DNA of 64,000 nucleotides from an uncultured Eubacteriales bacterium (GCA_964406575.1 CAYOSH010000022.1:2740-66739); one strand, 5' to 3'; positions 25,275 to 50,593 are shown, numbered from the stretch's first letter. Translations and numbers: made by a program. Notes: generated by a model from the sequence alone, not told the origin.

Positions 25275-25511
25275 ATGAAATGTCCGGGACAGGATACACG
25301 CCACTGGAAAAAAGAAGATATTTTTGAGGTTCATTGTCCCGCTTGCCGGACAACCGCTGAATTTTTCAAAGACGATGTTCGAAGACGCTGCAAAAAATGC
25401 AACACATGGATTCCCAACCCAAAACTCGATCTCGGATGTGCCGAATGGTGCAATTATGCGGAGCAGTGTCTCGGCAATGATTCCTTGAAAAAACGGAAGA
25501 AAAAAAAGTAG
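25275..25511 (+). CDS. Small Cys-rich metal-binding protein (CPGQD type)
   Basis: MKCPGQD...CPAC...CKKC...CAEWCNYAEQC with 8 Cys. Ends in TAG. Confidence 0.75.
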   Translation: MKCPGQDTRHWKKEDIFEVHCPACRTTAEFFKDDVRRRCKKCNTWIPNPKLDLGCAEWCNYAEQCLGNDSLKKRKKKK

Positions 25512-25544
25512 CTTCAATATCACATTCTGGTTTTCAGAATTCAA

Positions 25545-26141
25545 ATGATCAGTAAAGACCTCTGGATCACTCTTGGAGGACTGGATGTCTGCGACGTCGA
25601 GAGACGAAGCCTGTCAAAATATAATCCGCAGACTCAAAGTTATCGTTTAAGAATCCTCAACAGGGATTATGATATTTCCCCAGCAAAAAAAAGCGTACGG
25701 CTTGCCGAGTCAATTCTGGAGCAATTTCCAAGCTTCTATGTGCAACTTGTTACCGTCAACTATCTCATCGGAGCAAAAGACCTACCTCTGACCGGAAAGT
25801 GGATGGCTGTGACTCAATTCCCTTCAGGCCCGCTGTTTTTCCGTGGATCCCATAAAATGCCGAGCGATGCACTGGAAAAAGCCTTCAGTCATAATGAAGA
25901 TGACTTTAGCTCGCTATCTCTGGCTTATGGTGGCACCAAAGTGGATGGAGGCGATTGTGCTTTTGAATTCCCTTTCTTCCCCCGGCTCCCTGTCAGGCTG
26001 CTCCTCTGGTTAGCGGACGAGGAATTCCCCGCCCGGATGGTATTCCTTTTCGACAGAACGGCCGATCAGCATCTTCAACTGGATGGATTATGGGCTTTGG
26101 GGAAAGCTCTTGCACACGTGCTTCTTCACAAAACTCTCTAA
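25545..26141 (+). CDS. DUF3786-like protein
   Basis: YLIGAK..PLTGKW, FFRGSH, FPRLPVRLLLWLADEEFPA and FLFD, a pattern typical of DUF3786 proteins found near corrinoid/acs genes. Confidence 0.75.
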   Translation: MISKDLWITLGGLDVCDVERRSLSKYNPQTQSYRLRILNRDYDISPAKKSVRLAESILEQFPSFYVQLVTVNYLIGAKDLPLTGKWMAVTQFPSGPLFFRGSHKMPSDALEKAFSHNEDDFSSLSLAYGGTKVDGGDCAFEFPFFPRLPVRLLLWLADEEFPARMVFLFDRTADQHLQLDGLWALGKALAHVLLHKTL

Positions 26142-26190
26142 GGATCATTCAAAGAACCCTCAAGGTTTTAACAACTCATTGACGGAGGAA

Positions 26191-27477
26191 TCAGCCGGAA
26201 TCTATGGTTTGCCAGTCCAGCTTCTTATATTTGCGTCGAAATTGAGACGGTGTGCTCTTCTCCATCTGCTTGAATGTTTTTGTAAAATGGCTCTGATCGA
26301 AAAAACCAGCCTCGATCGCGCAATCTGCAATGTTGACATCCGTATTCAGAAGAAGATATTTCCCATACTCAACTCTGAGCTTCTTAATGTAATCCGAAAG
26401 CGATACCCCTGTCTCTTCCTTAAAAAGGTGAAGACATCTGCTCGTGCTCAGGCCACCAATCAACGCGACTTCTTCAGATTTTATCTTACGGGTAAAATTT
26501 TGATCGATATAGTCGATCATTTTTCTGATCTTGATTTTTTTCTTCTTCTCTTTGGTGGCTGAGACTCTAGTGATAAAATTGGTCAGAATATCATTAAGTT
26601 TGAACAGCAGTTCGTCTAAATCAGTCGCCCTATTCAGCTCCGTAAAATAGGAGTAGTTCAATCCCATCAGGTCTTTTGCATCCACTCCTGCCTCTATAGC
26701 CGTTCTTGAGATGATGACAACCAATTCGATGATTCGGACCTTGATGATCTCAAAATTCATGCCGCTGTCAAAAAAAATCGAACCCAAGAATTCGTTGAGA
26801 ATCTCTCTTGCCCCTGTTTTATCTCCGAGTTTGACCTTCTGAATGATCTCTTCCTGTTTGTCCAGAATCTTTCTAGCAACATCGGGCCTGTTTTTTTTCA
26901 GATCATCCAGGAAATTGGCGATTTTGTATTGCTGGATGTATTTGGCCTTTCTGTCTTCGAGAAAATTCATATCATTGATCTGATATTTCCTGGTGAGCGT
27001 GAGAAGGTAGGAAACGTTTTCCCTCACTTTTTTGAGCGAAAATATTTTAAATTTCAAATCCCGGAGCTTTAGCTCGTCCACTGACTCACAAAAACTCCCA
27101 AGATTCTGGGCCAGCTCATCGATAAAATCCTGCCTCATCTTCGGAAATATAGCAAAACCGCTCAGAAACCCTCCGAGGAGCTTTTTATTAAGAACAATGG
27201 GTACGGCGAACATGATCAGCCCAAGGGGACAATAGGTGATATAGCCCTCTCCCCACCGGAAGGCTTCTTCAATAGCTTTCAACATCTTCAATTGACAATT
27301 GCTCATCAGAGCACTGTTCCTGCTCGTAAAAGTTTGTTCGCATATCGTGCATTTTTTACTGCTGTGTAAAATTTCTCCGCTGGCATTGATGAGCACGAGA
27401 GGCAATCCTGTTTTAGTTGTGTATTTACCGGCAAGCATTTTAAACTTCGTTTCCGGTACGATTTTCTGAAGCTGCAT
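26191..27477 (-). CDS. AraC-family transcriptional regulator with N-terminal PocR sensor domain
   Basis: PocR-like TGLPLVLI...YITYCPLGLIMFAVPI. AraC HTH motifs LFKEETGVS and GFFDQSHFTKTFK. Confidence 0.88.
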   Translation of the reverse strand: MQLQKIVPETKFKMLAGKYTTKTGLPLVLINASGEILHSSKKCTICEQTFTSRNSALMSNCQLKMLKAIEEAFRWGEGYITYCPLGLIMFAVPIVLNKKLLGGFLSGFAIFPKMRQDFIDELAQNLGSFCESVDELKLRDLKFKIFSLKKVRENVSYLLTLTRKYQINDMNFLEDRKAKYIQQYKIANFLDDLKKNRPDVARKILDKQEEIIQKVKLGDKTGAREILNEFLGSIFFDSGMNFEIIKVRIIELVVIISRTAIEAGVDAKDLMGLNYSYFTELNRATDLDELLFKLNDILTNFITRVSATKEKKKKIKIRKMIDYIDQNFTRKIKSEEVALIGGLSTSRCLHLFKEETGVSLSDYIKKLRVEYGKYLLLNTDVNIADCAIEAGFFDQSHFTKTFKQMEKSTPSQFRRKYKKLDWQTIDSG

Positions 27478-27504
27478 GATATTTTATTTTTATATTTATT
27501 AGTT

Positions 27505-27629: not shown

Positions 27630-28289
27630 GTGGAAATACTTTTTGAGATCGCAAATAATTTGGAACATGGAGATTCTTCTGCAGTCAAAGAATCGTTGAG
27701 AAAAGCACTTTCTATGAATATTGCCCCTGAGAAAATCCTGAGTTTGGGGCTGATCAAAGGAATGGAAGCTGTCGGGAAAAAATTCAAGGCAAATGAAATC
27801 TTCATTCCCGAAGTCTTGATCGCATCGAGAGCGATGAAATCAGCGATGGACGTCATCAAACCATTTCTGACCGAAGGCACAGAATACTCTCAGGGAAAAA
27901 TAGTTTTGGGCACGGTGAAAGGAGACATCCATGACATCGGGAAGATGGTTGTGAGGATCGCGCTGGAAAGGGAAGGATATGATGTCATCGACATAGGCAT
28001 TGATGTCCCCAAGGAAGCCTTTCTGGAGGTGGCACTGAAAGAAGGCCCAGATATCGTGGGAATGTCTGCACTTCTTACGACAACAATGTCATACATGAGA
28101 GAGGTTACAGGTTCTATCAGATCCGCCCGCTTAAAAAAGAATGTCAAAATAATTATCGGCGGGGCGCCCATCACACAATCCTTTGCCGATGAGATCGGAG
28201 CCGACGGATACGCGCAAGAAGCGGAATCTGCAGTGACTCTTGTGAGAAGCCTTCTGAAAAACGAAGAAACGAAAAGGAAACATCGATGA
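27630..28289 (+). CDS. Cobalamin-binding (corrinoid) protein
   Basis: Cap domain FIPEVL, DxHxxG (GDIHDIGK), SALLTTTM and GGAP. Confidence 0.93.
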   Translation: MEILFEIANNLEHGDSSAVKESLRKALSMNIAPEKILSLGLIKGMEAVGKKFKANEIFIPEVLIASRAMKSAMDVIKPFLTEGTEYSQGKIVLGTVKGDIHDIGKMVVRIALEREGYDVIDIGIDVPKEAFLEVALKEGPDIVGMSALLTTTMSYMREVTGSIRSARLKKNVKIIIGGAPITQSFADEIGADGYAQEAESAVTLVRSLLKNEETKRKHR

Positions 28290-29071
28290 AATTTGCTGTT
28301 ACGGGAAAAGGAGGGACCGGAAAAACAACGATAGCAGGTATTTTGGCCCATTTTTTCAGCAGAGATGGCTATCATGTCTTGGCCGTGGATGCTGATCCGG
28401 ATTCCAACCTTGCTTCAGCCATTGGCGTCCCGGAGAATGAGGTCACCTCAGTCATTCCGATCTCGAAACAGCGTCAACTCATTACGGAAAGAACAGGTGC
28501 GAAACCCCGTCAATTCGGCCAGCTTTTCAAAATGAATCCGAGCGTGAGCGATATTCCGGATGCGTTTTGTATCGATCACAAAGGCATAAAACTTTTGATC
28601 TTGGGGGCTATCCAAAAAGGGGGGGCGGGTTGTGCGTGTCCGGAAAATGTGCTTCTCCGGAGCCTCTTATCCGAGATTATTCTCAATCGTGATGAAGTCG
28701 TTATCGTGGATATGGAAGCAGGCATCGAGCATCTAGGAAGAGCGACATCCCGGTCGATAGACAAAATGCTGATTATTGTAGAGCCCGGATCCCGAAGCAT
28801 ATTGACGGCAAAAACAATCCTGAGGCTTGCACGGGAAATCGGGGTCGAGTCTTTCGGCATCATCGGGAATAAAATCCAGGACAAAACACAAGAGGATTGG
28901 ATCCGTAACCAATTCCCTAAGGGACTTCTTTTGGGGACGGTTTCCTATCGGGATATCATCCGTGAGACCGACCAATCCCAGCAACCGATCATAGAATTCC
29001 TTGATGAAAACTTGAGCAGAGAATTTGACGCCATTTACCAATCTTTAAAGAATCTGGAGCGACTGTCATAA
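28286..29071 (+). CDS. cooC: CO dehydrogenase Ni-insertion ATPase CooC
   Basis: GKGGTGKTT, DADP, CxC (GCACPEN) and DMEAGIEHLGR. Confidence 0.92.
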   Translation: MKFAVTGKGGTGKTTIAGILAHFFSRDGYHVLAVDADPDSNLASAIGVPENEVTSVIPISKQRQLITERTGAKPRQFGQLFKMNPSVSDIPDAFCIDHKGIKLLILGAIQKGGAGCACPENVLLRSLLSEIILNRDEVVIVDMEAGIEHLGRATSRSIDKMLIIVEPGSRSILTAKTILRLAREIGVESFGIIGNKIQDKTQEDWIRNQFPKGLLLGTVSYRDIIRETDQSQQPIIEFLDENLSREFDAIYQSLKNLERLS

Positions 29072-29208: not shown

Positions 29209-30249
29209 ATGTCTTTTAAACCACAATGTCTTGCTTCCGGAATCGGAAGTTTCCCCCATAAGAATGTGGCCAGAGCCTGCGATTTGATCATGGAGACGAT
29301 CCCGGTGATCCCCATCTGGCCTCAACTGCCGAACACCAACTTCCGCGAACAAATGGAAGCCCAATACAGTGAGGCATTTCCCAATGTGGTCATAGATGAC
29401 TCTAAAGAGAAAATGTATTTCAACACTGCTGAGGAGTCCACAGCTGAGCTGGAAAGATTCTATGAGAGCTATATGGCAGAAGACCTGGGTCACTTTAAGA
29501 TATCCGAGGAATTCAGCCGTGGAATCTATGAGATGGAAAAAAGACTCGTCGCAGACCGGCCTTCGTCCATCCTGTTTTTCAAAAGCCAAGTGACCGGTCC
29601 GGTCACATTTGGCCTGGCGACTGTCGATGAGAATAAAAGAGCACTCTACTACAATGAGGTCTACAGGGATGTTGTCGTTAAAGGGATTACGATGAAAGCC
29701 AGGTGGCTCTTGGAAAAATTCAGACCTCTTGGATACAGCCAGATATGCTTTGTGGATGAGCCGATCCTCACCGGCTTTGGTTCCTCAACTTATGTCAGCG
29801 TTCAGAGGGAAGCCGTGGTGCATGACTTGAGCGAGGTGGTGGAAGCGGTCCATGCAAATGGCGCTCTTGTCGGGACCCACTGTTGTGGAAATACAGAGTG
29901 GCCTCTTTTGATTGATGCGGGCGTGGACATCATCAGTTTTGATGCCTATGAATTTGGCGACACGATCGCCTATTATCACGAACAGACGAAAAGATTCTTG
30001 GAGAAGGGAGGTGTACTGGCCTGGGGAATAGTGCCCACCTCGGAAAAAATAGCCGGAGAGACACCCGAATCTTTAATAACCCGGCTGAAAGAAAAAATAA
30101 CTCATTTGGCGAATAAGGGAATCGACCAGCACCTCATTTGGGAGAAATGCCTGTTGACCCCGAGCTGTGGCACTGGCTCTTTGCGGATTGAACTTTCAGA
30201 AAAAATCTTTTATACATTGTCTGAGGTGAGCCGTTTGCTCCGCGGATGA
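29209..30249 (+). CDS. mesB: Core (folate-independent) methionine synthase, MesB-like
   Basis: Catalytic-domain-only MetE-like protein with IGSFPH, WPQLP, TGPVT, FVDEP, HCCGNT, SFDAY, AWGIVPT and TPSCG. Resembles Dehalococcoides MesB as I recall it. Confidence 0.78.
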   Translation: MSFKPQCLASGIGSFPHKNVARACDLIMETIPVIPIWPQLPNTNFREQMEAQYSEAFPNVVIDDSKEKMYFNTAEESTAELERFYESYMAEDLGHFKISEEFSRGIYEMEKRLVADRPSSILFFKSQVTGPVTFGLATVDENKRALYYNEVYRDVVVKGITMKARWLLEKFRPLGYSQICFVDEPILTGFGSSTYVSVQREAVVHDLSEVVEAVHANGALVGTHCCGNTEWPLLIDAGVDIISFDAYEFGDTIAYYHEQTKRFLEKGGVLAWGIVPTSEKIAGETPESLITRLKEKITHLANKGIDQHLIWEKCLLTPSCGTGSLRIELSEKIFYTLSEVSRLLRG

Positions 30250-30336: not shown

Positions 30337-32268
30337 ATGGATGATAAAAGCAGGGACAATACAGACCATCAACTGCTGAAGAAAAATGTCCAGGAAGGAA
30401 TCGAAACTGTCTGGGACCGGTCGGACCAACAAAAGCCCCGGTGCGGTTTTGGAGAAAGCGGGCTCTGCTGCCATAACTGCTACATGGGGCCGTGCCGGAT
30501 CAATCCCAAAGGAAAAAGCCCTCAAAGAGGAGTTTGCGGTTCCACGGCCGAAGTTATTGTCGCCAGGAACTTTGCCCGCATGATTGCGGGAGGCGCGGCC
30601 GCCCACTCCGACCATGGGCGGGATGTGGCCAAGACACTGCTGTTAGCCGCGCAATCTCCTGATTCGGGATACACGATCACAGATGTGGGCAAGCTCAGGA
30701 AGGTGGCCAAAGTCCTGGACATCCCTACGGATAACCGGGAAAAAGAAGAGATTGCTCTTGAAGTCGCTCAAAAGGCGCTGTCAAATTTTGGAAATCAGGA
30801 AGGGGTCGTGTCTTTCACTCGCCTTGCGCCTGAAAAAAGACAAGCCCTGTGGCGGGACTTGGGTATAGTGCCTCGCGGAATTGACAGGGAGATCGTCGAA
30901 GTGATGCACCGCACGAGCATGGGCGTGGATCAAGACCACAAGAACATAATGCTTCAAGGCGCAAGAGCTGCTCTGGCCGACGGATGGGGCGGATCTATGA
31001 TTGCGACGGAACTCCAGGATATTCTTTTCGGAACCCCATCCCCTATCAGAGGGCAGGTGAACCTAGGTGTGCTCTCCGAAACGGATGTGAATATCGTTGT
31101 CCACGGTCACGAGCCCGTGCTGGCAGAAGCCTTGGTCTTTGCATCTCAGGATAAAGACCTCCTGGGGCTTGCCAAATCACAAGGGGCCACCGGGATAAAC
31201 CTGAGCGGTATTTGCTGTACGGCTAATGAAATCCTTCTGCGGCATGGATTGCCCATTGCCGGCAACATTCTCCAGCAGGAGCTGGCTATTGCCACAGGAG
31301 CCGTGGAAGCCATGATCGTTGATGTCCAGTGCATCATGCCCTCATTGCCAGAGATTTGCAAATGTTACCACACAAAGCTCATCACCACCTCCCCAAAGGG
31401 AAAAATAGAAGGCGCCGAACACATTGGCTTTACCCATGAACGGGCTTTCCAAACAGCCAGAGAGATCATAAAATTATCGGTCTTGAATTTCCCGAAAAGA
31501 GGCAAATTCGAGATTCCCAAAGAGAAAATGGATCTGATCGCGGGCTTCAGTCACGAGGCCATCAATTACATGCTCGGCGGATCATTTCGGGGCTCCTACA
31601 CTCCTCTCAATGACAACGTCATCAACGGCCGGATTAAAGGAGTCGCGGGAGTCGTGGGTTGTTGCAATCCCAAAGTCACTCACGACCGCATCCACATCGA
31701 TCTTGTCGAAGAGCTCATCGCCAATGATATCCTGGTCGTGCAGACTGGATGCTCGGCCATCGCCTGTGCCAAAGCCGGTTTGCTCGTCCCTGAATCCGCG
31801 GTAAAGTATGCGGGTAAAGGGCTAGCCGAAGTGTGTTCGGCCGTGGGTATGCCTCCCGTGCTTCACTCGGGTTCCTGTGTGGATAACAGCCGTATTTTGA
31901 TCGCGCTCTCCGAGATGGTAAAGATCGGCGGACTCGGCGAAGATATCAGCGACCTCCCCGTTGCGGGAGCAGCACCGGAATGGATGAGCGAGAAGGCCAT
32001 TTCAATCGGACAGTATTTCGTCTCCTCGGGAGTCTTCACTGTATTCGGAGTGGGTCTTCCAATCTCTGGCAGCGGCCCGTTCTGCGATCATGTATTCAGA
32101 GAGTATGAAAACATCTTTGGCGGGATGTGGGGCGTTGAGCCAGATCCGGGAAAAATGGCCGGATTGATGATCGACCATATCAATAAAAAACGACAAAAAT
32201 TGGGCATCAGCAAGGCAAAAAAACGAGTCCTTTATGACATGGAAATGAGAAGAGAACTGGATATTTAA
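30337..32268 (+). CDS. cooS: Anaerobic Ni,Fe CO dehydrogenase catalytic subunit
   Basis: CGFG...CCHNCYMGPC, GVCG, HSDH, HGHEP, CCTANE, DVQC, TGC, GSCVDNSR and WMSEKA. Confidence 0.96.
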   Translation: MDDKSRDNTDHQLLKKNVQEGIETVWDRSDQQKPRCGFGESGLCCHNCYMGPCRINPKGKSPQRGVCGSTAEVIVARNFARMIAGGAAAHSDHGRDVAKTLLLAAQSPDSGYTITDVGKLRKVAKVLDIPTDNREKEEIALEVAQKALSNFGNQEGVVSFTRLAPEKRQALWRDLGIVPRGIDREIVEVMHRTSMGVDQDHKNIMLQGARAALADGWGGSMIATELQDILFGTPSPIRGQVNLGVLSETDVNIVVHGHEPVLAEALVFASQDKDLLGLAKSQGATGINLSGICCTANEILLRHGLPIAGNILQQELAIATGAVEAMIVDVQCIMPSLPEICKCYHTKLITTSPKGKIEGAEHIGFTHERAFQTAREIIKLSVLNFPKRGKFEIPKEKMDLIAGFSHEAINYMLGGSFRGSYTPLNDNVINGRIKGVAGVVGCCNPKVTHDRIHIDLVEELIANDILVVQTGCSAIACAKAGLLVPESAVKYAGKGLAEVCSAVGMPPVLHSGSCVDNSRILIALSEMVKIGGLGEDISDLPVAGAAPEWMSEKAISIGQYFVSSGVFTVFGVGLPISGSGPFCDHVFREYENIFGGMWGVEPDPGKMAGLMIDHINKKRQKLGISKAKKRVLYDMEMRRELDI

Positions 32269-35263: not shown

Positions 35264-35279
35264 AAGGACAGGGCCACAA

Positions 35280-41552: not shown

Positions 41553-41583
41553 CAAGGATTACTATGACAAGAGAGGAGAGACA

Positions 41584-42234
41584 ATGAGTAATGAAAAGTT
41601 TCTTGAAATGGTCAAAAAGGCGATCGTCGAAGGGAATAAAGACGAAGCGGAACAACTGGCACAACAGGCGATCGCAGAAAAAATGGATCTCAACGAGGTC
41701 ATCGAACAGGGATACATACTGGGGATCCAAGAAGTGGGACGTCTGTGGGAAGAGGGGGAATATTTTTTGCCCGAGTTGATCACCAGCGCGGAATGCATGA
41801 AGGCCGCTATGGAGATCATGAAGCCCGAGCTGGAAAAAGCTCATATCACCACACGATCCGAGGGAAAAGTCGTCATCGGAACTGTCGAGGGCGATATCCA
41901 CGATATCGGTAAAAACCTCGTAGCTTCGATCCTCTCAGCAAACGGATTCGATGTCATCGATCTCGGAGCGGATGTGAAGCTGGACCAGTTTATTGAAAAA
42001 GCGGACGAAGTGAACGCTGACCTGATCTGTTTATCTGCGCTCCTGACTACGACCATGACCGGACAAAAAAAGCTGATCGAGCGCCTCAAAGAAAAAGGCC
42101 TTTATGGACGATTCAAAGTCATGGTGGGCGGAGCTCCTGTCAACCAAAAATGGGCTGACGATATCGGTGCTGACGGCTATTCGGAGAATGCTCTCACAGC
42201 GGTGGGCGCAGCGAAAATGTTGGCAAAAAAATAG
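41584..42234 (+). CDS. Methyltransferase cognate corrinoid protein (MttC-like)
   Basis: YFLPEL, GDIHDIGKN, SALLTTTM and GGAP. Adjacent to an MttB homologue. Confidence 0.93.
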   Translation: MSNEKFLEMVKKAIVEGNKDEAEQLAQQAIAEKMDLNEVIEQGYILGIQEVGRLWEEGEYFLPELITSAECMKAAMEIMKPELEKAHITTRSEGKVVIGTVEGDIHDIGKNLVASILSANGFDVIDLGADVKLDQFIEKADEVNADLICLSALLTTTMTGQKKLIERLKEKGLYGRFKVMVGGAPVNQKWADDIGADGYSENALTAVGAAKMLAKK

Positions 42235-42314: not shown

Positions 42315-43787
42315 ATGATTGAACCGCGAAGACCAAAATTAGAACTTTTGAGCAATGAACTGATCCAAAAAATCATAGATGAGGCATACGATATCCTCGA
42401 AAATCAGGGTGTTTTTATCGAGAACGAAGAGGCGCTGGAGCTTCTTCGAGATGCGGGGATGAAAGTCGATACGTCCTCCCAGAGAGTAAGAATCACCCCG
42501 CAGCTCGTTGAAGATTCTCTTGCATCGACGCCAGCCTCTCTTAAGATGTATGACAGGGACGGAGAGACAGAGTATCTCATTGGGGAGGATGAAGTCCATT
42601 TTAACCCGGGCTCTGTGGCTGTCACCATACTGGACTTCGAGACACAGCAGGAGAGGAAGGCTGTCACTGACGACCTGATCCGGTTTACCCATCTGACTGA
42701 CTGCCTCGAGCATCTCCACTTCCAGAGTACCGGAATTCTGAGCAGTGATGTCTCGGAGATCATTTCGGACAGCTACCGGTTGTACATCGGCCTCTTATTT
42801 TCCAAAAAACCCATTGTCACCGGAACCTTTCGAGTGGAAGGATTTGAGCCCATGCACAGAATGCTCGTGGCCGTACGGGGAAGTGAAAAGAATCTTTCGG
42901 ATAAACCGCTGGCAATCTTCGATGCCTGCCCCTCCCCTCCTCTCAAATGGAGCAATTTGACCGCCCAAAGTTTGATCGACAGCGCCAGGGCTGGTATTCC
43001 CTCCGAATTGATTTCCATGGGGATGACAGGAGCCACTTCTCCCGTCACGATCACAGGCACGCTGGTCCAACATGTGGCTGAAAACCTGTCCGGTTTGTTG
43101 ATATGTCAGCTCGCCAAAAAGGGCGCACCAGTGATCTTCGGCGGATGTCCTTTGAGTTTCGATATGAGGAAAGGGACAACTCCTATCGGCGCAATAGAAA
43201 CTTTGATGATCGACTCCGCTTACGTTCAGATTGGAAAACATCTCGGTCTTCCGACTCACTCTTACATGGGAATGAGCGATGCTAAGATCAATGATGCACA
43301 GGGAGGATTTGAAACTGGAATAGGTATAATTCTGGCCGCACTTTCAGGAGTGAATGTGATCTCCGGCGCAGGAATACTGGATTTCATCAGGTGCCAGAGT
43401 CTGGAAAAACTGGTCATTGACAATGAGATCTGCGGGATGGCATACCGTTTGATAGAAGGGATAGCGCAACGCGATGATCCGATCGCTCTGGATCTTTTCA
43501 AAGATTTCGCAGCCGACACACAGTTCCTCTCTATGCCCCACACCAGAAAGTGGTACAGAGAGGAACACACATTTCCCAAGCTGATCGATCGGGATCCCTA
43601 TGACATCTGGGTATCCAAGGGGAAAAAATCAATTTCTTCGCGGGCCAAAGAAGAGGTGGAGAGCCTGCTGCAAAAGAATCTAGCGCCGCTTCCTGATAAA
43701 GAAATACAAAAGGCGCTCAAGGAAATCATGTTGTCCGATGCGCAAAGAAACGGCATGCCCTCGCTGCCCGAGATAGACTTTCCTTAG
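42315..43787 (+). CDS. MttB-superfamily corrinoid methyltransferase, non-pyrrolysine type
   Basis: SPVTITGTLVQ, FDMRKGT and SLEKLVIDNEI. The Pyl-equivalent position is Met (LPTHSYMG-M-SDAK). No internal TAG. Confidence 0.92.
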   Translation: MIEPRRPKLELLSNELIQKIIDEAYDILENQGVFIENEEALELLRDAGMKVDTSSQRVRITPQLVEDSLASTPASLKMYDRDGETEYLIGEDEVHFNPGSVAVTILDFETQQERKAVTDDLIRFTHLTDCLEHLHFQSTGILSSDVSEIISDSYRLYIGLLFSKKPIVTGTFRVEGFEPMHRMLVAVRGSEKNLSDKPLAIFDACPSPPLKWSNLTAQSLIDSARAGIPSELISMGMTGATSPVTITGTLVQHVAENLSGLLICQLAKKGAPVIFGGCPLSFDMRKGTTPIGAIETLMIDSAYVQIGKHLGLPTHSYMGMSDAKINDAQGGFETGIGIILAALSGVNVISGAGILDFIRCQSLEKLVIDNEICGMAYRLIEGIAQRDDPIALDLFKDFAADTQFLSMPHTRKWYREEHTFPKLIDRDPYDIWVSKGKKSISSRAKEEVESLLQKNLAPLPDKEIQKALKEIMLSDAQRNGMPSLPEIDFP

Positions 43788-43822
43788 AAAAAATTGACTA
43801 GTTTATACAAAAAAAAAGAGCT

Positions 43823-44698
43823 ATGATGGGGACATCCCCAGTCATTAGACAAACAATGCCTTCAAAAAAATATGGCTGGACGACCAGCCAGATGCAACGA
43901 TTGAGAGAACTCAATGCGACCGAGGTCTTGCTCAGCAAACAATTTCCTGACCTTAAGACACGAAATAGAAACTTCTTCAAGATCGAACAAAATTTGGCTC
44001 GTCAGAGTCAAGAAAATCTCCAAGTCTTGCGCACAAAGCGCCGGCGTCCTCGGTTGTGCGAACTGGAAGATTTCCTTGTACAGACGCTGGTGAAACAGGG
44101 CTTCGTTCAGGTTGTCACACCGATTCTCATTGCCAAAGATTCCCTCGCAAAGATGTCGATTGAGCCAGGTCACGAGCTGTTCAAACAGGTTTTTTGGGTC
44201 GAAGAAAAAAAATGCCTGAGACCTATGCTGGCTCCCAATCTCTATTTTCTGCTGAGAGAGCTCGTGAACATATGGGAAAAACCGGTGAGGATCTTTGAAG
44301 TGGGCCCATGTTTCCGAAAGGATACAAAAGGCCGACACCATATCAATGAATTCACCATGCTCAATCTTGTGGAACTGGGCTTACCGATAGCTAAAAGAAA
44401 AGAGAGACTGGAGGAACTCGCATCGATCATTTTGCAATCAAGCGATATCGCAAAATTCAGTTTTGTCTCTCATCGGAGCGAAGTCTACGGCGAAACGATA
44501 GATGTTCTTTCCGGTTTCGAAGTCGCCTCAGGAGCGATGGGCCCTCATCCACTGGATTCGAATTGGGGAATCACGGATCCCTGGATCGGCATTGGATTCG
44601 GATTGGAAAGACTGCTTATGGTCAGGGAAAATTTCCAAAATATCCAGCGTGTTGGCCGAGCCCTGATCTACCTGGATGGAGAACGACTGAACATTTGA
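43823..44698 (+). CDS. pylSc: Pyrrolysyl-tRNA synthetase C-terminal catalytic subunit
   Basis: WTTSQMQRLRELNA, GFVQVVTP, CLRPMLAPNLY, FEVGPCFRK, EFTMLN, PWIGIGFGLERL and YLDGERLNI. The start could be the later Met (MPSKK). Confidence 0.97.
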   Translation: MMGTSPVIRQTMPSKKYGWTTSQMQRLRELNATEVLLSKQFPDLKTRNRNFFKIEQNLARQSQENLQVLRTKRRRPRLCELEDFLVQTLVKQGFVQVVTPILIAKDSLAKMSIEPGHELFKQVFWVEEKKCLRPMLAPNLYFLLRELVNIWEKPVRIFEVGPCFRKDTKGRHHINEFTMLNLVELGLPIAKRKERLEELASIILQSSDIAKFSFVSHRSEVYGETIDVLSGFEVASGAMGPHPLDSNWGITDPWIGIGFGLERLLMVRENFQNIQRVGRALIYLDGERLNI

Positions 44699-44769
44699 GA
44701 ACATTTTGCTCTCTTAATTTGAGTGATCAAGAGATGAGTTAGGATTCTATTCACACAACAGGAGATGGA

Positions 44770-45420
44770 ATGATGAGTAAAGAAGAGTTTTTTAAAGAAG
44801 CCGAGCAATCGATTTTAAACCATGACAAGGCTAAAGCCGAGGAGGTTGCACGAAAGGGCCTCGCTGAAGGTCTAGATCCGGTTGAATTCATCACAAAGGG
44901 CTTCCGTGAAGGGATCACTCAGATCGGAGATCTTTTCAGTAGAGGGGAGATTTTCCTGCCGCAACTCATCGAAGCAGCCGAGGCTATGAAGACAGCAAAT
45001 AAAATCCTTACAGAATCGATGCCAGAGTCTGCTCAAGAGAAAAGAGGTAGGTTCGTCATAGGAACAGTGCAGGGAGACATCCACGATATCGGAAAATTCT
45101 TAGTGATCTCTCTCCTTCGCGTCAACGGTTTTGAGGTTTACGACTTGGGTCATGATGTCGAAATACAAAAATTTATCGATAAGGCCCTGGAAGTCGAGGC
45201 GCATATTATCGGAACGAGCGCCCTCCTGACCACAACCATGATCGGGCAAAAAACCCTGGAAGAAAAGCTGAAAGAATCCGGACTTAAAAGCAGGTTCAAA
45301 ACGATGGTCGGCGGAGCCCCGGTCACCCAACGCTGGGCCGAAAGGATCGGAGCCGATGCTTTCGGTGAGGACGCCAACGATGCCGTAGAGAAAGCCCTCC
45401 GTCTGGTCGGTTCAAAATAG
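44770..45420 (+). CDS. Methylamine methyltransferase corrinoid protein (probably the MtbB partner, MtbC-like)
   Basis: IFLPQL, GDIHDIGK, SALLTTTM and GGAP. Located inside the pyl cluster; the partner assignment is inference. Confidence 0.9.
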   Translation: MMSKEEFFKEAEQSILNHDKAKAEEVARKGLAEGLDPVEFITKGFREGITQIGDLFSRGEIFLPQLIEAAEAMKTANKILTESMPESAQEKRGRFVIGTVQGDIHDIGKFLVISLLRVNGFEVYDLGHDVEIQKFIDKALEVEAHIIGTSALLTTTMIGQKTLEEKLKESGLKSRFKTMVGGAPVTQRWAERIGADAFGEDANDAVEKALRLVGSK

Positions 45421-45465
45421 ATCGCACTTTCTTTTTTTTTGAGTGAGATTCGCAGACATAACATT

Positions 45466-46578
45466 ATGGCAGAGAGAGATCGATACCCAAAACTCGAAGA
45501 GATCCTGGAAAAATCTCTGCAAAGAAAACCACTATCCGCATCAGAAATCACATATCTTCTTGGATTAACGGAAGGGAACAAGATATCCCGAGTTTTTCAA
45601 ACAGCCCAGTATCTAAGAGCCAAGCATTTTGGGAACAAAGTCTTTCTTTACGGATTTGTCTATTTTTCCACATACTGCCGGAATAATTGCACATTCTGTG
45701 CATCCCGGGCGTCCAATAAGCTCGCGCTACGGTATAGAAAAAGCCAATCGGAGGTCTTAGAAGCAGCTAGCCTGCTGGCGGAATCCGGTGTTCATTTGAT
45801 CGATTTGACCATGGGAGAAGACCCCTTCTACTGCAGGAGTGAAGGCGAACACGACTCTCTCCTGACACTGATTTATAAGGTGAAGACAGAAACAGGTCTA
45901 CCGCTCATGGTCTCACCAGGAGTGGTTACAAAAGATGTGCTAGCGGAGTTTGTTAGGGCAGGGGTCGATTGGTATGCCTGTTATCAGGAAACGCACAACC
46001 GACAGCTATTCGCCTATCTCCGCCCGGAACAAAATTTTGACACACGTCTCTCGGGTAAAATTTTAGCGAAACAGCTGGGAATCCTGATCGAAGAAGGAAT
46101 TTTGACAGGAGTCGGAGAATCTCTCTCTGATATCGCATTATCCATGGAGGTAATTCGGGCGTTAGGCGTTCAACAGGCCAGAGTGATGAGTTTTGTTCCC
46201 CAGATCGGGACGCCAATGTGTGATAGAAAATCGCCTTCTCGGCTAAGAGAGTTGATGACTATCGCCGTGTTACGCCTCTTGTTCCCGGACCGGTTGATCC
46301 CTGCTTCTTTAGATGTAGACGGCCTTGATCTCCTCCAAGAGCGGTTAGAAGCGGGTGCGAATGTGATCACATCCCTGATCCCTCCAAGACTTGGATTATC
46401 AGGCGTTTCTCAGCCCTCTCTCGGCATAGACGAGGGATCCCGCACGGTTCCAGGTGTGGCTCCCCTGCTCAATGAGATGGGGATGGAGGCGGCTGCGCCT
46501 CAAGATTATTCTCTATGGATTTATGCCGAAAAATCAGCCTTAGCTCGCCGTTCGGCAAATTATGAGGTGGCCGCTTGA
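45466..46578 (+). CDS. pylB: 3-methylornithine synthase (radical SAM)
   Basis: FLYGFVYFSTYCRNNCTFC, HLIDLTMGEDP, ACYQETH, RVMSFVPQ.GTP and LIPASLDVDG. First ATG at 45466; an in-frame TTG lies at 45439. Confidence 0.96.
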   Translation: MAERDRYPKLEEILEKSLQRKPLSASEITYLLGLTEGNKISRVFQTAQYLRAKHFGNKVFLYGFVYFSTYCRNNCTFCASRASNKLALRYRKSQSEVLEAASLLAESGVHLIDLTMGEDPFYCRSEGEHDSLLTLIYKVKTETGLPLMVSPGVVTKDVLAEFVRAGVDWYACYQETHNRQLFAYLRPEQNFDTRLSGKILAKQLGILIEEGILTGVGESLSDIALSMEVIRALGVQQARVMSFVPQIGTPMCDRKSPSRLRELMTIAVLRLLFPDRLIPASLDVDGLDLLQERLEAGANVITSLIPPRLGLSGVSQPSLGIDEGSRTVPGVAPLLNEMGMEAAAPQDYSLWIYAEKSALARRSANYEVAA

Positions 46579-47735
46579 GAGTGGCTGTCGTCGGTGGAAA
46601 GCTGCAGGGAGTCGAGGCAGCTTATCTTGCGCATCAGGCGGGATGGCAGGTTTTGCTCATTGACCGGGATCCGGACGTTCCCGCGAGAGGCCTTGCCCAT
46701 TCCTTCATCCAGTCGGATGTCACGCAAGACACACCGGATATCTCGGATATATTCAAGGACATGGACCTCATTATCCCGGCATTGGAAAATCAAAAGGCGC
46801 TCGAATCTTTGAAGGACCTGTCGAAAAGAAAAAGATTTCCGCTTGCTTTCGATGATGCGGCATATGCAGTTACTTCGTCCAAACAAAAATCGGACTCGCT
46901 TTTTAGAGAGTTAGGCCTTCCCGCACCTCGACCATGGCCTGACTGCGGATTTCCAGTGATTTTGAAGCCCTCAGAGTCGAGCGGAAGCCAGGGAGTTATT
47001 AAAATTTACGACAGAGAGGACCTGATTTCCTTCCGTCGGGGAAATACATTTTCTAACGATTGGATCACCCAAGAGTTTCTCGAGGGTCCCTCATACTCTC
47101 TGGAGATTGTAGGCATCGATGGAAATTATCGCTCCCTGCAATCCACGATCATCGAAGTCGACAGGAGTTTCGACTGCAAGAGAGTTATCGCCCCAGCCGA
47201 TTTGCCGGAAACTTTCGTTAACAGATTCGACGAAATCACTGTCGCCGTTGCCGAGGCCATCCACCTTACAGGAATAATGGATATAGAAGTCATTTGCCAC
47301 AATAACGAGCTAAAGATCCTGGAAATCGATGCCCGCCTGCCCAGCCAGACCCCGACAGCTGTGCTCAAATCAACCGGCATCAACATGCTGGAACTCCTGT
47401 ACGACATATTCAACAGAGGTATAATGCCCGATATCTCACTGATTATGGAGGAAAAGCCTGTCATCTATGAGCACATAAAAGTGAATCCCGATACATTAGA
47501 ATTGTCTGGTGAACATATCATGGCAGAGGCGCGACCTCTTCGCTATCAAAAGAATTTTTTTGGAGCTGACGAAGCTCTCACGGATTTTGACTCAGATCAT
47601 CCGAGTTGGGTGGCGACTTTGATTTTAACCGGGAAAACCAAAACAGAGGTCGTCCAAAAACATCACCGCGTTATGGAAACAATTCGGCAAATTTTCGGAC
47701 TGCGAGAGTGTTCGGACCCGCATCCGGGATTGTAA
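46575..47735 (+). CDS. pylC: 3-methylornithine--L-lysine ligase (ATP-grasp)
   Basis: VVGGKLQGVEAAYLA, SGSQGV, DCKRV, EIDARLPSQTP and GEHIM. TTG start overlaps the pylB TGA. Confidence 0.96.
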   Translation: MRVAVVGGKLQGVEAAYLAHQAGWQVLLIDRDPDVPARGLAHSFIQSDVTQDTPDISDIFKDMDLIIPALENQKALESLKDLSKRKRFPLAFDDAAYAVTSSKQKSDSLFRELGLPAPRPWPDCGFPVILKPSESSGSQGVIKIYDREDLISFRRGNTFSNDWITQEFLEGPSYSLEIVGIDGNYRSLQSTIIEVDRSFDCKRVIAPADLPETFVNRFDEITVAVAEAIHLTGIMDIEVICHNNELKILEIDARLPSQTPTAVLKSTGINMLELLYDIFNRGIMPDISLIMEEKPVIYEHIKVNPDTLELSGEHIMAEARPLRYQKNFFGADEALTDFDSDHPSWVATLILTGKTKTEVVQKHHRVMETIRQIFGLRECSDPHPGL

Positions 47736-47778
47736 TAAGATCTTTTGTTCTGGTAAGGACTGAAAGAACTGGTGTGAT

Positions 47779-48636
47779 ATGACGCGTTTAAGCAGTGAGT
47801 TGATCTCAGGAATGAGTGAGACTCTCGCTGCCTACGACATCGAACTCGCACAGAAGACCGGGCTTACTCTGAGACAGATCGTGGCTCGAACAGCCGGTTT
47901 ATCTGAAGAAACCCTGTGTAGTGCTTTCGGCTCTGAGAGTGCTGCCGTAATTCCGGTCACAGCAGGTCAGGGAGTTATCCAGGGATTCACTCAGGCTGTT
48001 GAAGGGATTATCGAATACTTGGGCTGCCCTTGTTTCATAACGGCAAACAGTGATGCCGCAGGACTGGCCGAAGGCATCGAAAAAGGCGCAACGATCGTCT
48101 TTTTAGCAGATGATAACCGCTTTATTGCCATTAACCTTATGCAGAAGCGCGTCGTCGACAATGCCGCGGCGACCGGATGGAGCTATGCCTATGCTTTAGA
48201 TGCCTGTGCCGGCGGTCTTAAGGATCGAGAAGTGCTTCTCATCGGCGCAGGAAGAGTAGGAGAACATGCCTTAGCGGCTCTCGAGAAACTGGAGGCAAAA
48301 GTAGGTGTTTTCGATATTAACGGTCAGAGAGTGCACGACCTTTCGTCCAAGTTCAGCATAAGCGAGGAAGAAGATCTTACAGCTTCCTTAGGAGGATACA
48401 CCCTGTTATATGATGCATCTCCAGCTTCGAATATTATCCATACAGAACACATCAAACCGGAGACGATCATCGCAGCCTGCGGCATACCGCTCGGCGTGAG
48501 TGATGAGGCTCGTTGTCTCGTCGAAGAGCGCCTCATCCATGATCCTCTCCAATTGGGAGCTGCAGCAATGCTTGCCATGGCCGTTCGCCATGGTCTGAGT
48601 GATAAAAACGGGGGGCGGATCGGACGGATCGCATAG
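47779..48636 (+). CDS. pylD: 3-methylornithyl-N6-lysine dehydrogenase (pyrrolysine synthase)
   Basis: MTRL, IPVTAGQGVIQGF, ADDNRF, GAGRVG and IHDPLQLG. The last 9 codons lie within pylT. Confidence 0.95.
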   Translation: MTRLSSELISGMSETLAAYDIELAQKTGLTLRQIVARTAGLSEETLCSAFGSESAAVIPVTAGQGVIQGFTQAVEGIIEYLGCPCFITANSDAAGLAEGIEKGATIVFLADDNRFIAINLMQKRVVDNAAATGWSYAYALDACAGGLKDREVLLIGAGRVGEHALAALEKLEAKVGVFDINGQRVHDLSSKFSISEEEDLTASLGGYTLLYDASPASNIIHTEHIKPETIIAACGIPLGVSDEARCLVEERLIHDPLQLGAAAMLAMAVRHGLSDKNGGRIGRIA

Positions 48637-48681
48637 ACCCTAAATCTATGAAGCCGGGTGCGACTCCCGGGCTCCCCGCCA
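48610..48681 (+). tRNA. pylT: tRNA-Pyl (anticodon CUA)
   Basis: 72-nt cloverleaf: acceptor GGGGGGC/GCTCCCC, single linker base, D-stem GATC/GATC with a 5-nt loop, 6-bp anticodon stem CATAGA/TCTATG, loop CCCTAAA (CTA at 48640-48642), 3-nt variable loop, T-stem CCGGG/CCCGG, discriminator G and encoded CCA. Confidence 0.97.
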
Positions 48682-48732
48682 AGAGGATATCTTTGTTTGT
48701 AAGAGTTGAAAAATTGAAGATACGAATGTAAA

Positions 48733-49071
48733 ATGGCTGAGAAAAAAATCAAAGACAAGTACATCCGCAAGCAGGTCGATTTCTTCATCCTGCTCGAAAA
48801 GATCAGACTGTGGCCCTCCCGTGGCGGTCTGCTGCACGGGATCAAGGCCTTTACGATAAAGGGAACTCTTGCTGAGATCACCACTCACTGTAATGAGACT
48901 TTTTTGATTCGGCATTCCAAAAAAAGCCGGGCCGCCCGATGGCTGCGGAATAAATGGTATTTCCAGAGCTGCAAAAAATGCAATATTCCCGAGTGGAAGA
49001 TCACGAAGTACCAGAAAACACACTTCGACCAGCATCGCGGCTCTCTATTAAGAAAAAAGACCGAACAATGA
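48733..49071 (+). CDS. pylSn: Pyrrolysyl-tRNA synthetase N-terminal subunit
   Basis: KIRLWPSRGGLLHGIK, THC, SKKSRAARWLRNKW and CKKCNIPEWK. Confidence 0.96.
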   Translation: MAEKKIKDKYIRKQVDFFILLEKIRLWPSRGGLLHGIKAFTIKGTLAEITTHCNETFLIRHSKKSRAARWLRNKWYFQSCKKCNIPEWKITKYQKTHFDQHRGSLLRKKTEQ

Positions 49072-49207
49072 CAGATTCTTGTGATAGGAGTTCGATGGGA
49101 TAAGAGAAAAGATACTTTTACAGAGAGATTCGATTTTTTTTATGAGTGTGTGCTAAAAGACACACAAAAAAATAAAAAAATCCACAAAGAAAGGAGGTGA
49201 AAAAGGA

Positions 49208-50593
49208 ATGAAGAAAATCAGAACAAGAATGGGAGATGGTTCCCTTGTGGAGCTCACCGAAGACGAATTGAAGCGAGAGTTCGAAGAAGGAACTCGAGAT
49301 GCAGCCGACAGGGGGAAAATCCCAGCCCTCACACAAAATGAGCTGGATCATCTCTTCGACATCTACAGCTCTCCATCGCGACCAGTTGGAGTTGAAATGG
49401 GAAATGAAGTCATTTTTACTTATGACTCGACATGCGGTGAAGTCCAGCGCACACTCACCCCGATCGACAGGACCCAATCGCTCCAACTGTTCGAAAGAAT
49501 GCTGGGTGCCGATACAGTAGAACTCGGTCACAACGATTACAGCTTCAAAGCGGTCAAGCCTGTCATCAGCTATGAGCGGACAGTCCTGGAGCAAGCTCTA
49601 CTAGTCACAACTGTACCTGTACTCTACGGGGCCATGCCCAATCTAGGGCTGTACTACCGGCCAGAGGGTCCGGTTCAGAACCCATCCGAGCTCATGGCTT
49701 CGGGAACAATCGACGAAGCCAGAGAGGCGCATGAAGAAGCCATCGAGTATGCGGTCAAAGATATGGTTTATGTGGCCAGCGAGCTGTATGAATCAGGCGT
49801 GGACGCCATCGACTTCGATACGACAGGTTCTGCCGGTGATCCAGACTTTCTAGCCGCTTTGCGGGCGGTGGAGATCCTGAAGGGGAAGTATCCGGACCTT
49901 TGTGTGGAGATGGGCATGTCGGGGGAATTTGTCCTAGGGATGCATGGAGGCTTGACTTACGATGATATTAGACTGGCGGGATTGTATCCTCATCAACAAG
50001 TCCAGCTTGCAGAGAAGGCGGGAGTCACGATTTTCGGACCCGTTATTAACACGAATACCAGCAAGACCTGCGCATGGAATGTCGCGCGTGTCGTAACCTT
50101 CCTTAAATTTTGTGTAGAACAATCGAACATTCCAGTGCACGCAAACATGGGAATGGGGGTCGGCGGATTACCTGTGACGCCCTATGTCCCTATTGATGCA
50201 GTCTCGAGAGCGTCCCAAGCCGTGGTTGAGATCACGCGTCTCGACGGGTTGTAGGTGGGCGTGGGAGACATTCTCGGCATGGCTGCGACTCACGCGATTG
50301 CGTCGGGCATGGGCGGGATGCGCACCGCCGGAGATCTGGTGGCGCGCATGCAAATGTCCCGGGGTATGAGACTCAAGGAAGCCAAAGAGTACGTGGCTGG
50401 CAAACTGAACCTTTCACTCATTGAACTCAGCGATCCGCTCGTGATGTCTGAGCGCAGAGAGGACCTCAAGCTGGGATTGATCAATCCCCCACCCAACTAT
50501 GTCAAGGGCATCGAGGCCAAGTTCCACATTGCAGAACTACTGGGAGTCGAGATCAACTCCCTCCGGCGGTTCAGAGAAAAAATCAAAATTTGA
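49208..50593 (+). CDS. mtbB: Dimethylamine:corrinoid methyltransferase containing pyrrolysine (461 aa, Pyl at codon 349)
   Basis: RMGDG N-terminus, DYSFK.VKP, YGAMPNLGLY, FDTTGSAGD and HANMGMGVGG. The in-frame TAG at 50252-50254 falls in RLDGL-O-VGVGD, matching the conserved DGI-O-IGVGD of MtbB. Homology continues after it (AGDLVARMQ, KGIEAK). Confidence 0.96.

Follow-up and report, generated by a model that had tools for sequence, protein, structure and literature searches.

In methylotrophic acetogens, methyl groups are passed to tetrahydrofolate by a pterin-binding methyltransferase (MT2) and then to the corrinoid iron-sulfur protein (CoFeSP) by AcsE, and to our knowledge all characterised routes from methylamines to acetyl-CoA use a pterin carrier, tetrahydrofolate in acetogens and methanopterin in methanogens. 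Here we analyse a 64,000-nucleotide stretch of DNA (the window) recorded for an uncultured Eubacteriales bacterium (GCA_964406575.1, CAYOSH010000022.1:2740-66739), which carries a block of genes for carbon monoxide dehydrogenase/acetyl-CoA synthase (CODH/ACS), corrinoid methyltransferases and pyrrolysine (Pyl). The block consists of three corrinoid methyl-transfer modules placed head to tail behind one PocR/AraC regulator. Its parts are of known kinds, viz., MesB-acs operons, MtgBCDE-type systems and bacterial pyl cassettes; new here are the fusion of the three modules, the clean loss of the folate link and the use of pyrrolysine in Aminicenantes, the lineage to which the genome appears to belong, judged by how its close homologs and loci are named. 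A literature search found no description of this block, though supplementary tables of metagenome-assembled genomes may list such genes, and no report of pyrrolysine use in Aminicenantes, public annotations already naming the genes. All coordinates are those of the whole window; the genome under study is called G000, related genomes and contigs carry the prefixes G and C, and the relatives form an order sample of 101 genomes and a family sample of 96, both including G000, with loci compared by tblastn of the window proteins.

Each module resembles a described system. Price et al. 2021 name a methionine synthase family MesB and, in the passages cited, propose CoFeSP as its methyl source (PMC7857596), and passages of PMC7005905 (Deobald 2020) describe the core-MetE of Dehalococcoides as a protein of 343 amino acids (aa) with the zinc ligands His215, Cys217, Asp236 and Cys312. 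The likeness of the first module to this MesB/core-MetE of Dehalococcoides mccartyi lies in a predicted single-barrel zinc enzyme of ~345 aa with the same spacing of H-x-C...D...C, to within one residue. As with the MesB of D. mccartyi and other Wood-Ljungdahl organisms in those passages, the gene is clustered with acsC/acsD in a genome without MetF and AcsE. In contrast to the D. mccartyi system, the present one has a full Ni-CODH along with two CooC genes, so that CO need not build up, and small corrinoid proteins and N-methyl methyltransferases share the operon. For the second module, the closest described system is MtgBCDE of Ruegeria pomeroyi, presented by Mausz et al. 2025 as a glycine betaine demethylase and methionine synthase with a RamA-type activase (passages of PMC12478193). 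The two share a pfam06253 methyltransferase, a small cobalamin protein, a separate PF02574 subunit and an activase of RamA/RACo type, and MtgD and MetF2 of R. pomeroyi are matched by the pair of a pterin methyltransferase and a methylenetetrahydrofolate reductase (MTHFR) fusion in relatives such as G171. The present system differs in that it is anaerobic, the MtgD and MetF counterparts are deleted in G000, the module is fused with a CODH/ACS operon on one side and a pyrrolysine cassette on the other, and its methyltransferase MttB1 is about equally close to MtgB and MttB, with the substrate unassigned.

Bacterial cassettes that join a split pylSn/pylSc with methylamine methyltransferases exist in other lineages, too. 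Those treated in passages of PMC10805028, which report the expression of Pyl-mtbB/mttB in Actinobacteriota, share with the third module a split pyrrolysyl-tRNA synthetase (PylRS), pylBCD, pylT and a TAG-containing methylamine methyltransferase with its corrinoid protein. The present cassette differs from them in belonging to an Aminicenantes lineage, in having MtbB as the sole Pyl enzyme detected and in being physically fused to an acs operon. A non-Pyl MttB with a cognate corrinoid protein in a CODH/ACS organism is also seen in methylotrophic acetogenesis, as in Desulfitobacterium hafniense (MtgB/MtgC/MtgA), Acetobacterium woodii and Eubacterium limosum (passages of PMC10805028 and PMC12478193); unlike in these acetogens, neither a pterin-binding MT2 nor AcsE was found in G000.

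The block runs from 27630 to 52410 on the + strand and comprises 22 protein genes and the gene for tRNA-Pyl, all co-oriented and separated by gaps of 137 bp at most (listing of open reading frames, ORFs, and family scans). An earlier note on this DNA had described co-oriented CODH/ACS, corrinoid methyltransferase and pyl genes from 27630 to 50593, opposite a PocR/AraC regulator. The regulator and every gene named there lie where the note had put them, the genes on the + strand, and the co-orientation extends even further. Its inventory overlooked three methyltransferases (MesB-type, 29209-30249; HcyMT, 39674-40561; and a third, 40658-41464), and its starting point, 25275, matches no specific feature, falling inside a 173-aa ORF without family assignment. 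Protein families were called with Pfam, NCBIfam (curated cut-offs) and PDB sequence search, and RNAs with Rfam and ARAGORN. The regulator and the three modules are as follows.

26191..27477, - strand: PocR-sensor/AraC-type regulator, divergent from the block (Pfam PocR and HTH_18)
27630..28289, + strand: CorA, small corrinoid protein, first gene of the acs operon (Pfam B12-binding and B12-binding_2)
28286..29071, + strand: CooC1, Ni-insertion ATPase (Pfam CbiA/ParA family; position kept in relatives)
29209..30249, + strand: putative MesB-type core methionine synthase, a core-MetE-like zinc methyltransferase (predicted fold and ligand spacing)
30337..32268, + strand: AcsA, Ni-CODH catalytic subunit (TIGR01702, 641.6 bits, cut-off 478)
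32290..34494, + strand: AcsB, acetyl-CoA synthase (NF040764, 1064.9 bits, cut-off 800)
34511..35263, + strand: CooC2, Ni-insertion ATPase (Pfam CbiA/AAA_31)
35253..36257, + strand: AcsD, CoFeSP small subunit (NF003376, 408.2 bits, cut-off 280)
36260..37597, + strand: AcsC, CoFeSP large subunit (NF003195, 499.8 bits, cut-off 306; Pfam FeS and CdhD)
37687..39624, + strand: RACo/AcsV-type reductive activator of corrinoid proteins (Pfam Fer2 and RACo linker, middle and C-terminal domains)
39674..40561, + strand: HcyMT, MetH-type homocysteine S-methyltransferase, MtgE-like (PF02574, 220.8 bits)
40658..41464, + strand: class I S-adenosylmethionine (SAM)-dependent methyltransferase, substrate unassigned (Pfam Methyltransf_11/25)
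41584..42234, + strand: CorB, corrinoid protein paired with MttB1 (TIGR02370, 246.4 bits, cut-off 215)
42315..43787, + strand: MttB1, non-Pyl methyltransferase of the MttB superfamily (PF06253, 300.7 bits; below the trimeth_pyl cut-off)
43823..44698, + strand: pylSc, catalytic subunit of PylRS (TIGR02367, 336.8 bits, cut-off 178)
44770..45420, + strand: CorC, corrinoid protein of the cassette (TIGR02370, 235.4 bits, cut-off 215; MtbC 210 bits, below cut-off)
45439..46578, + strand: pylB (TIGR03910, 459.2 bits, cut-off 348)
46575..47735, + strand: pylC (TIGR03909, 441.5 bits, cut-off 248)
47779..48636, + strand: pylD (TIGR03911, 244.9 bits, cut-off 150)
48610..48681, + strand: pylT, tRNA-Pyl with anticodon CUA (ARAGORN)
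48733..49071, + strand: pylSn, N-terminal subunit of PylRS (TIGR03912, 128.3 bits, cut-off 51)
49208..50593, + strand: mtbB, dimethylamine:corrinoid methyltransferase with one in-frame TAG at 50252-50254, Pyl349 (TIGR02368, 523.3 bits, cut-off 369)
50252..50351, + strand: PYLIS_2-like element starting at the mtbB TAG (Rfam RF02509, 64.8 bits, gathering score 36)

The G000 assembly amounts to 4.34 Mb in 99 contigs and is 89.4% complete. The assembly of the block looks sound, since the order recurs in three relatives (G170, G171 and G102) and a contig assembled from the reads of an independent run (X4, record 12, 43502-44182) spans the MttB1/pylSc junction. The read-derived contigs are short; they cover the region and bridge this junction once, and their depth is unfit for ranking genes. 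Nine DNA runs contain this sequence and are labelled salt marsh metagenome. A scan of 36000-53600 gave 20 promoter-like sites, as against 16.7 +/- 3.5 expected, and 12 terminator-like sites, as against 17.6 +/- 4.1, i.e. neither above chance; no + strand terminator-like site between block genes stands out, and promoter-like sites scoring 10/12 lie upstream of CorB (41523-41552) and pylSn (48706-48734). The block is probably transcribed as one or few units.

The first module, an AcsE-less CODH/ACS operon, has the order PocR / CorA, CooC1, MesB, AcsA, AcsB, CooC2, AcsD, AcsC, RACo and holds the complete set for the carbonyl branch of the Wood-Ljungdahl pathway (AcsA, AcsB, AcsC, AcsD and CooC). 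It is kept in the ACS-positive Aminicenantes examined, in some of which a second RACo-like gene follows CorA; in 9 of 12 acs loci from the order the regulator is in the same place, and the CooC1-to-RACo stretch occurs in other phyla too, as found by tblastn on fetched loci. CorA is MtgC-like, scores below the NCBIfam cut-offs and has the motif GDIHDIGK; a predicted complex of CorA with AcsB residues 326-734, both given as alignments, scored 0.01 in a run without controls and counts neither for nor against such a contact. The activator reaches 654 bits with the AcsV profile, under the cut-off of 800, and 112.9 bits with the RamA subfamily profile TIGR04270, as against a cut-off of 500, and it has an N-terminal 2Fe-2S domain. 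Judged by these profiles, it falls outside the RamA subfamily, though likely working like RamA since both share the same ASKHA core. The activator that the earlier note took to serve possibly all the corrinoid proteins is single only as far as the window goes; in the genome, contig C11 encodes a second protein of Fer2+RACo architecture.

For the 346-aa protein encoded between CooC1 and AcsA, nothing usable was found in Pfam (E up to 10), NCBIfam or the PDB sequence search, and a protein atlas gives automatic names only, such as "methionine synthase family". Its homologs number more than 6265, and one source labels some of them cobalamin-independent methionine synthase II. The AlphaFold2 model (pLDDT 82.8) predicts a single MetE-type barrel of ~340 aa without the N-terminal folate-binding half, and Foldseek matches it best to MetE catalytic barrels and then to URO-D, MesD (3rpd) and MtaA (4ay7). 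H224, C226, D245 and C320 are invariant across 30 sequences, with a spacing of 2/19/75 as against 2/19/76 for the ligands of core-MetE, the assignment as zinc ligands being based on this spacing and not on a residue-level structural alignment. Sequence and model together point to a MesB-type core methionine synthase. Homologs are present in 20 of the 101 genomes of the order, viz., all 19 with AcsB and, in addition, G095, and in 53 of 57 loci of at least 9 kb from several phyla a MesB-like gene and AcsA share one locus. The proposal that MesB draws on CoFeSP fits here because the distribution of the protein follows that of AcsB.

In the second module, HcyMT matches the MetH Hcy domain best in the PDB (1q7m, 156 bits, vs 59 bits for BHMT) and has Cys210 and Cys276-Cys277; a corrinoid-free enzyme of BHMT or MmuM type was ruled out, as the protein is far nearer to the MetH Hcy domain and its gene adjoins CorB. 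The SAM-dependent methyltransferase that follows is restricted to relatives with the fused acs-pyl block (G170, G171, G102, G126 and locus L078); its best matches are weak and of ArsM/UbiE/BioC type. MttB1 matches MtgB (2qne/9yce) with 220 bits and MttB (7xcl) with 202 bits, and its substrate is probably a quaternary amine. The set of an MtgBCDE-type system is complete in its pfam06253 methyltransferase (MT1), cobalamin protein, Hcy-binding subunit and RACo, which also stand together in ACS-negative relatives; the pterin-binding subunit MtgD is missing in G000 and present in most relatives. Orthologs of MttB1 with 50-87% identity occur in 92 of the 101 genomes of the order, mostly without ACS, so that at least 73 of these genomes are ACS-negative, and a specific tie of MttB1 to ACS genomes is thereby ruled out. 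In 12 ACS-negative loci CorB adjoins MttB1 every time; 4 of these loci have an adjacent homocysteine methyltransferase as well, and 6 an adjacent RACo-like activase. In 9 of 12 ACS-positive genomes of the order examined the MttB1 module lies within the acs locus. The MttB1 gene itself ends in TAG, with TGA two codons on (43785-43796).

Gene order around this module was also compared between loci with and without ACS. In six ACS-negative loci (L010, L013, L016, L019, L023, L140) a RACo-like activase, ~30% identical to RACo, directly precedes HcyMT/CorB-MttB1. In six ACS-positive loci (L133-L137, L139) this paralog is found at the 5' end, next to CorA, and the acs cassette separates it from HcyMT. 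The pattern suggests either that acs was inserted into the interior of an older MttB1 module or that it was lost from there.

The third module holds a complete pyrrolysine system, i.e. tRNA-Pyl (CUA), pylSn and pylSc, pylB, pylC and pylD, with all five proteins above the NCBIfam cut-offs, and CorC accompanies the pyl genes in every cassette seen. The Pfam halves of mtbB meet across the TAG (profile positions 3-353 and 355-463), the read-through product being 461 aa long. MtmB was not found in G000 and no MttB paralog there has a TAG interruption, which leaves MtbB as the only detectable Pyl enzyme. In the cassette loci examined, no acceptor enzyme or activase belongs to the pyl-mtbB cassette, which must therefore borrow both. 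TAG is not avoided as a stop, since it terminates 467 of 2141 long ORFs genome-wide, and a back-up stop follows no sooner after these than after other stops (median 18 codons vs 13-14). The stop of pylD is likewise a TAG, at 48634-48636, inside the tRNA-Pyl gene.

The folate branch of G000 is reduced. Fhs and FolD are present, MTHFR/MetF (PF02219) and MetE were not found in the genome, nor was a MetH pterin domain, and the methyl branch of the Wood-Ljungdahl pathway is thus incomplete. The sole PF00809 (Pterin_bind) match in the 89.4%-complete genome is the DHPS beside ftsH, leaving no second match for AcsE, and a homolog of the pterin methyltransferase is missing from 113 of 114 fetched acs/pyl loci, the remaining one having it 36 kb from the acs operon. 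Of the genes that the earlier note had proposed to look for, fhs and folD were recovered, whereas acsE-type genes and metF proved to be missing. MTHFR is found in 85 of the 101 genomes of the order, mostly as a fusion of ~610-645 aa, often with a pterin methyltransferase of ~270-290 aa a few kb off on the same contig. In G171, which belongs to the same genus as G000, a Pterin_bind protein (291 aa) and an S-methyl_trans+MTHFR protein (608 aa) follow hydantoinase genes, and contig C9 of G000 is colinear with both flanks, with ~109 bp in place of 2.8 kb. An assembly gap was ruled out as the explanation of the missing genes by this synteny, and the absence is a real deletion because the G171 flanks are contiguous within C9. 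With the pterin methyltransferase and the HcyMT-MTHFR pair deleted, no folate route remains in G000.

MTHFR is missing in G000, G001, G010, G056, G170 and G123, and its loss shows a weaker association with pyl than ACS does. All 4 pyrrolysine genomes of the order sample are without MTHFR, but a general rule to this effect was overturned by G171, G102 and G126 among five closer relatives; since these keep the folate genes, their loss is not tied to the block. Elsewhere in G000, four MtaA/CmuA-like URO-D proteins (contigs C18, C12 and C4; L005-L008) score below cut-offs (best 137.7 bits vs 244), and none of their genes adjoins a corrinoid protein gene; it is possible that they are extra MT2 enzymes.

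Strong PylSc matches occur in 4 of the 101 genomes of the order and 10 of the 96 of the family. The full block is colinear in G170, G171 and G102 (two genera), and partial contigs of G126 and G166 have the same MttB1-pylSc junction; together with G123 these extend its conservation to a third genus. The junction measures 35 bp; like the gene order as a whole, it persists in three genera, with proteins 70-95% identical. G123 has an MttB1-pylSc remnant only, and AcsB was not found in it; in this single-contig genome, no pylBCD, pylSn, mtbB, CorB or acs genes lie near the remnant (L114, G123:C1:1922000-1941999), which looks like a decayed fused block. A second configuration is seen in G109, where 9.7 kb separate the cassette from the acs operon on the side of the regulator, and in G145 a full pyl-mtbB cassette is followed by CorB-MttB1. 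Cassette and acs lie 2.7 Mb apart on one contig in G001 and on different contigs in G010 and G056, and G167, in which ACS was not found, has an uninformative arrangement. The fusion is thus stable in a subclade of three genera and recurs in other forms, and it is not obligatory. The comparison of synteny proposed earlier bears out the conserved adjacency for the three colinear genomes and the three further ones with the junction, and not as a general rule, given G001, G010, G056 and G145.

At the genome level, ACS is present in 10 of the 12 genomes whose cassette is seen in full or in part (G000, G001, G010, G056, G170, G171, G102, G126, G166 and G109; not found in G145 and G167), compared with 19 of 101 in the order sample. 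All four genomes of the order sample with strong PylSc have ACS, and of nine further genomes with PylSc in the family, 6 were found to have AcsB. The 19 ACS-positive genomes have 80 PF06253 matches in all (4.2 each on average; at least 3 in 11 of 19) and the 82 ACS-negative ones 92 (1.1 each; at least 3 in 2 of 82). This enrichment of cassettes and MttB in ACS-positive genomes favours N-methyl groups feeding ACS. As to downstream enzymes, the Rnf and acetate-forming genes that the earlier note had asked for are at hand in G000 as two RnfD/NqrB-type loci, two acetate kinase genes and three strong ATP-grasp_5 genes of ADP-forming acetyl-CoA synthetase type.

We read the block, with a confidence just short of even, as a folate-independent methylotrophic unit whose catabolic methyl share ends in acetyl-CoA, folate-independent because the folate link is deleted in G000. 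Gene identities, gene order and synteny, the deletion and the genome-level associations are observed, and from them we infer the following methyl transfers. MtbB would take a methyl group from dimethylamine and load CorC, MttB1 would take one from a quaternary amine and load CorB, and RACo would keep the corrinoid cobalt reduced, reactivating CorB and CorC. HcyMT would pass part of the methyl to homocysteine, giving methionine, and MesB would link CoFeSP with homocysteine/methionine. The catabolic share would most likely go to acetyl-CoA, with CODH reducing CO2 to CO by means of electrons from amino-acid fermentation and ACS joining methyl, CO and CoA, after which acetate kinase or the ADP-forming synthetases would give ATP. 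Entry of the methyl group into ACS is favoured by the associations, by the size of the investment and by there being no other catabolic sink after the loss of the folate link. Candidate routes by which the small corrinoid proteins might hand the methyl group to CoFeSP/ACS are a relay through methionine and homocysteine (HcyMT working forward and MesB backward), a direct corrinoid-to-corrinoid transfer and a direct corrinoid-to-ACS transfer. In the relay, methionine/homocysteine would replace tetrahydrofolate, HcyMT methylating homocysteine and a reversed MesB methylating CoFeSP, so that the methyl of dimethylamine or betaine would enter acetyl-CoA pterin-free. We hold it to be distinctly improbable, though it would account for the two homocysteine methyltransferases of different kinds that stand on either side of the ACS genes in an operon without AcsE. 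The conversion of methionine with CO2 and reduced ferredoxin is slightly exergonic overall, the MesB step alone being uphill.

Several observations weigh against the entry of methyl groups into acetyl-CoA. In the gene content of G000, no known enzyme that passes a methyl group from MetH-type corrinoid proteins to CoFeSP/ACS could be identified, and the only acceptor enzymes in the block are the two homocysteine methyltransferases, i.e. methionine-making ones. The demethylation of methionine by Co(I) is uphill by ~25-30 kJ/mol, by analogy with methyl-H4MPT:CoM transfer. The MttB1-CorB module is independent of ACS, as its occurrence in 92 of 101 genomes and the homocysteine methyltransferase or activase of its own that often stands beside it indicate; the adjacency of acs and pyl is not general (a distance of 2.7 Mb in G001, separate contigs in G010 and G056); G145 has a full cassette beside CorB-MttB1, yet AcsB was not found in it at 91% completeness; and MTHFR and the pterin methyltransferase coexist with the cassette in G171, G102 and G126. 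The associations themselves are indications only, because the relatives are not independent and the matches are not copy numbers. The integrated module for acetyl-CoA synthesis from dimethylamine and other N-methyl compounds put forward in the earlier note thus gains from the conserved block, the associations and the acetate-forming genes and loses by the missing link enzyme and the exceptions in module and adjacency.

The same observations bear on two other explanations. All three modules may supply the S-methyl group of methionine without folate, no N-methyl carbon reaching acetyl-CoA: ACS would cleave acetyl-CoA, the CoFeSP methyl would go to MesB and CODH would oxidise the CO, while MttB1/CorB and MtbB/CorC would feed HcyMT. 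Every step belongs to an enzyme family with a published role, as passages of PMC7857596 and PMC7005905 (MesB and CoFeSP) and of PMC12478193 (MtgB/C/E with a RamA-type activase) indicate, and no novel step is needed. That the two homocysteine methyltransferases are the sole acceptors, that G000 is without MetE, MetH pterin domain and MTHFR, that a folate-dependent split-MetH-like pair has been cleanly deleted, that the MttB1 module occurs without ACS in most of the order and that ACS was not found in the cassette-bearing G145 all fit such a supply. Four MttB-family genes, MtbB and the pyrrolysine machinery would however be a large outlay for one biosynthetic methyl group when the window is crowded with genes for peptidases and amino-acid uptake; moreover, the concentration of pyl cassettes and MttB expansions in ACS-positive genomes would be left unexplained, and G171, G102 and G126 keep the folate-dependent route together with the cassette. 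We regard this explanation as possible and somewhat unlikely. Should it be right and methyl groups not reach ACS, the block would amount to three alternative folate-free methyl supplies for methionine.

It may also be that history alone brought the units together, the acs and pyl cassettes each having been inserted beside an old, near-universal MttB1 module and remaining independent in work and regulation. The modules do occur singly: acs lacks pyl in 15 of the 19 ACS-positive genomes of the order sample, pyl is remote from acs in G001 and G010, ACS-negative genomes have the MttB1 module by itself, and the CooC1-MesB-AcsA...RACo cassette is found without the other modules in other phyla. Such separate occurrences are in keeping with this view, as are the promoter-like sites before CorB and pylSn, though the scan overall is not above chance. 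Set against these are the conservation of the gene order, 35-bp MttB1-pylSc junction included, across three genera, the three arrangements (in this block, in G145 and in G109) in which the pyl cassette has either the MttB1 module or the acs operon as a neighbour, its having no acceptor or activase of its own and the enrichment of pyl in ACS-positive genomes. We consider a purely historical origin improbable. As it stands, a widespread sediment lineage retains an intact and conserved CODH/ACS, methylamine and pyrrolysine block despite the loss of the pterin methyltransferase and the methylenetetrahydrofolate reductase, and the block extends genetically encoded pyrrolysine use to Aminicenantes. 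If the preferred reading is true and methyl groups reach ACS, a folate-independent entry into the carbonyl branch of the Wood-Ljungdahl pathway exists, and Aminicenantes would compete with methanogens for dimethylamine and betaines in sediments of salt-marsh type.

The genes adjoining the core of the block are as follows.

25545..26141, + strand: DUF3786 protein (Pfam PF12654, 142.9 bits), adjoining PocR/AraC in relatives too
50695..52410, + strand: amidohydrolase of the D-aminoacylase family (Pfam Amidohydro_3; PDB 1m7j, D-aminoacylase, 235.7 bits)
52424..53530, - strand: protein resembling ornithine racemase (Orr), encoded convergently with the block (NF040742, 379.8 bits; cut-off 480, not reached)

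The amidohydrolase gene travels with the cassette, preceding pylSc in G001 and G010 and following mtbB in G000, G170 and G171, and in G170, too, an Orr-like gene stands beside it. D-ornithine is taken up by PylC/PylD, and a link of the amidohydrolase/Orr pair to the synthesis or proofreading of pyrrolysine is conceivable. Paralogous amidohydrolase/Orr-like pairs are found elsewhere.

Two further MttB-family genes lie in the window. MttB2 (59017-60510, - strand) is a second non-Pyl MttB, 58% identical to MttB1; its gene is isolated, with those for a TPR protein and an S9 peptidase on its two sides. Rfam PYLIS_3 exceeds its gathering score in the non-Pyl mttB genes (43272-43371 and 59433-59532), and these matches were rejected as coding similarity, there being no TAG and the first starting at ATG; such matches in TAG-free mttB genes call for caution in automatic annotation. 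In AcsC, a weak HgcAB-like match is seen, and a stretch of G000 (C6:92148-92492) is 32% identical to the corrinoid-binding end of AcsC; it could be an HgcA-type mercury-methylation gene. The other MttB-family gene of the window (4185-5648) is 27% identical to MttB1, has no adjacent corrinoid protein and lies in a region (1905-10199) with two S58 peptidases, an MFS transporter, an X-Pro dipeptidyl peptidase and an M20 peptidase; its product might act on an N-methylated amino acid or peptide, for example proline betaine.

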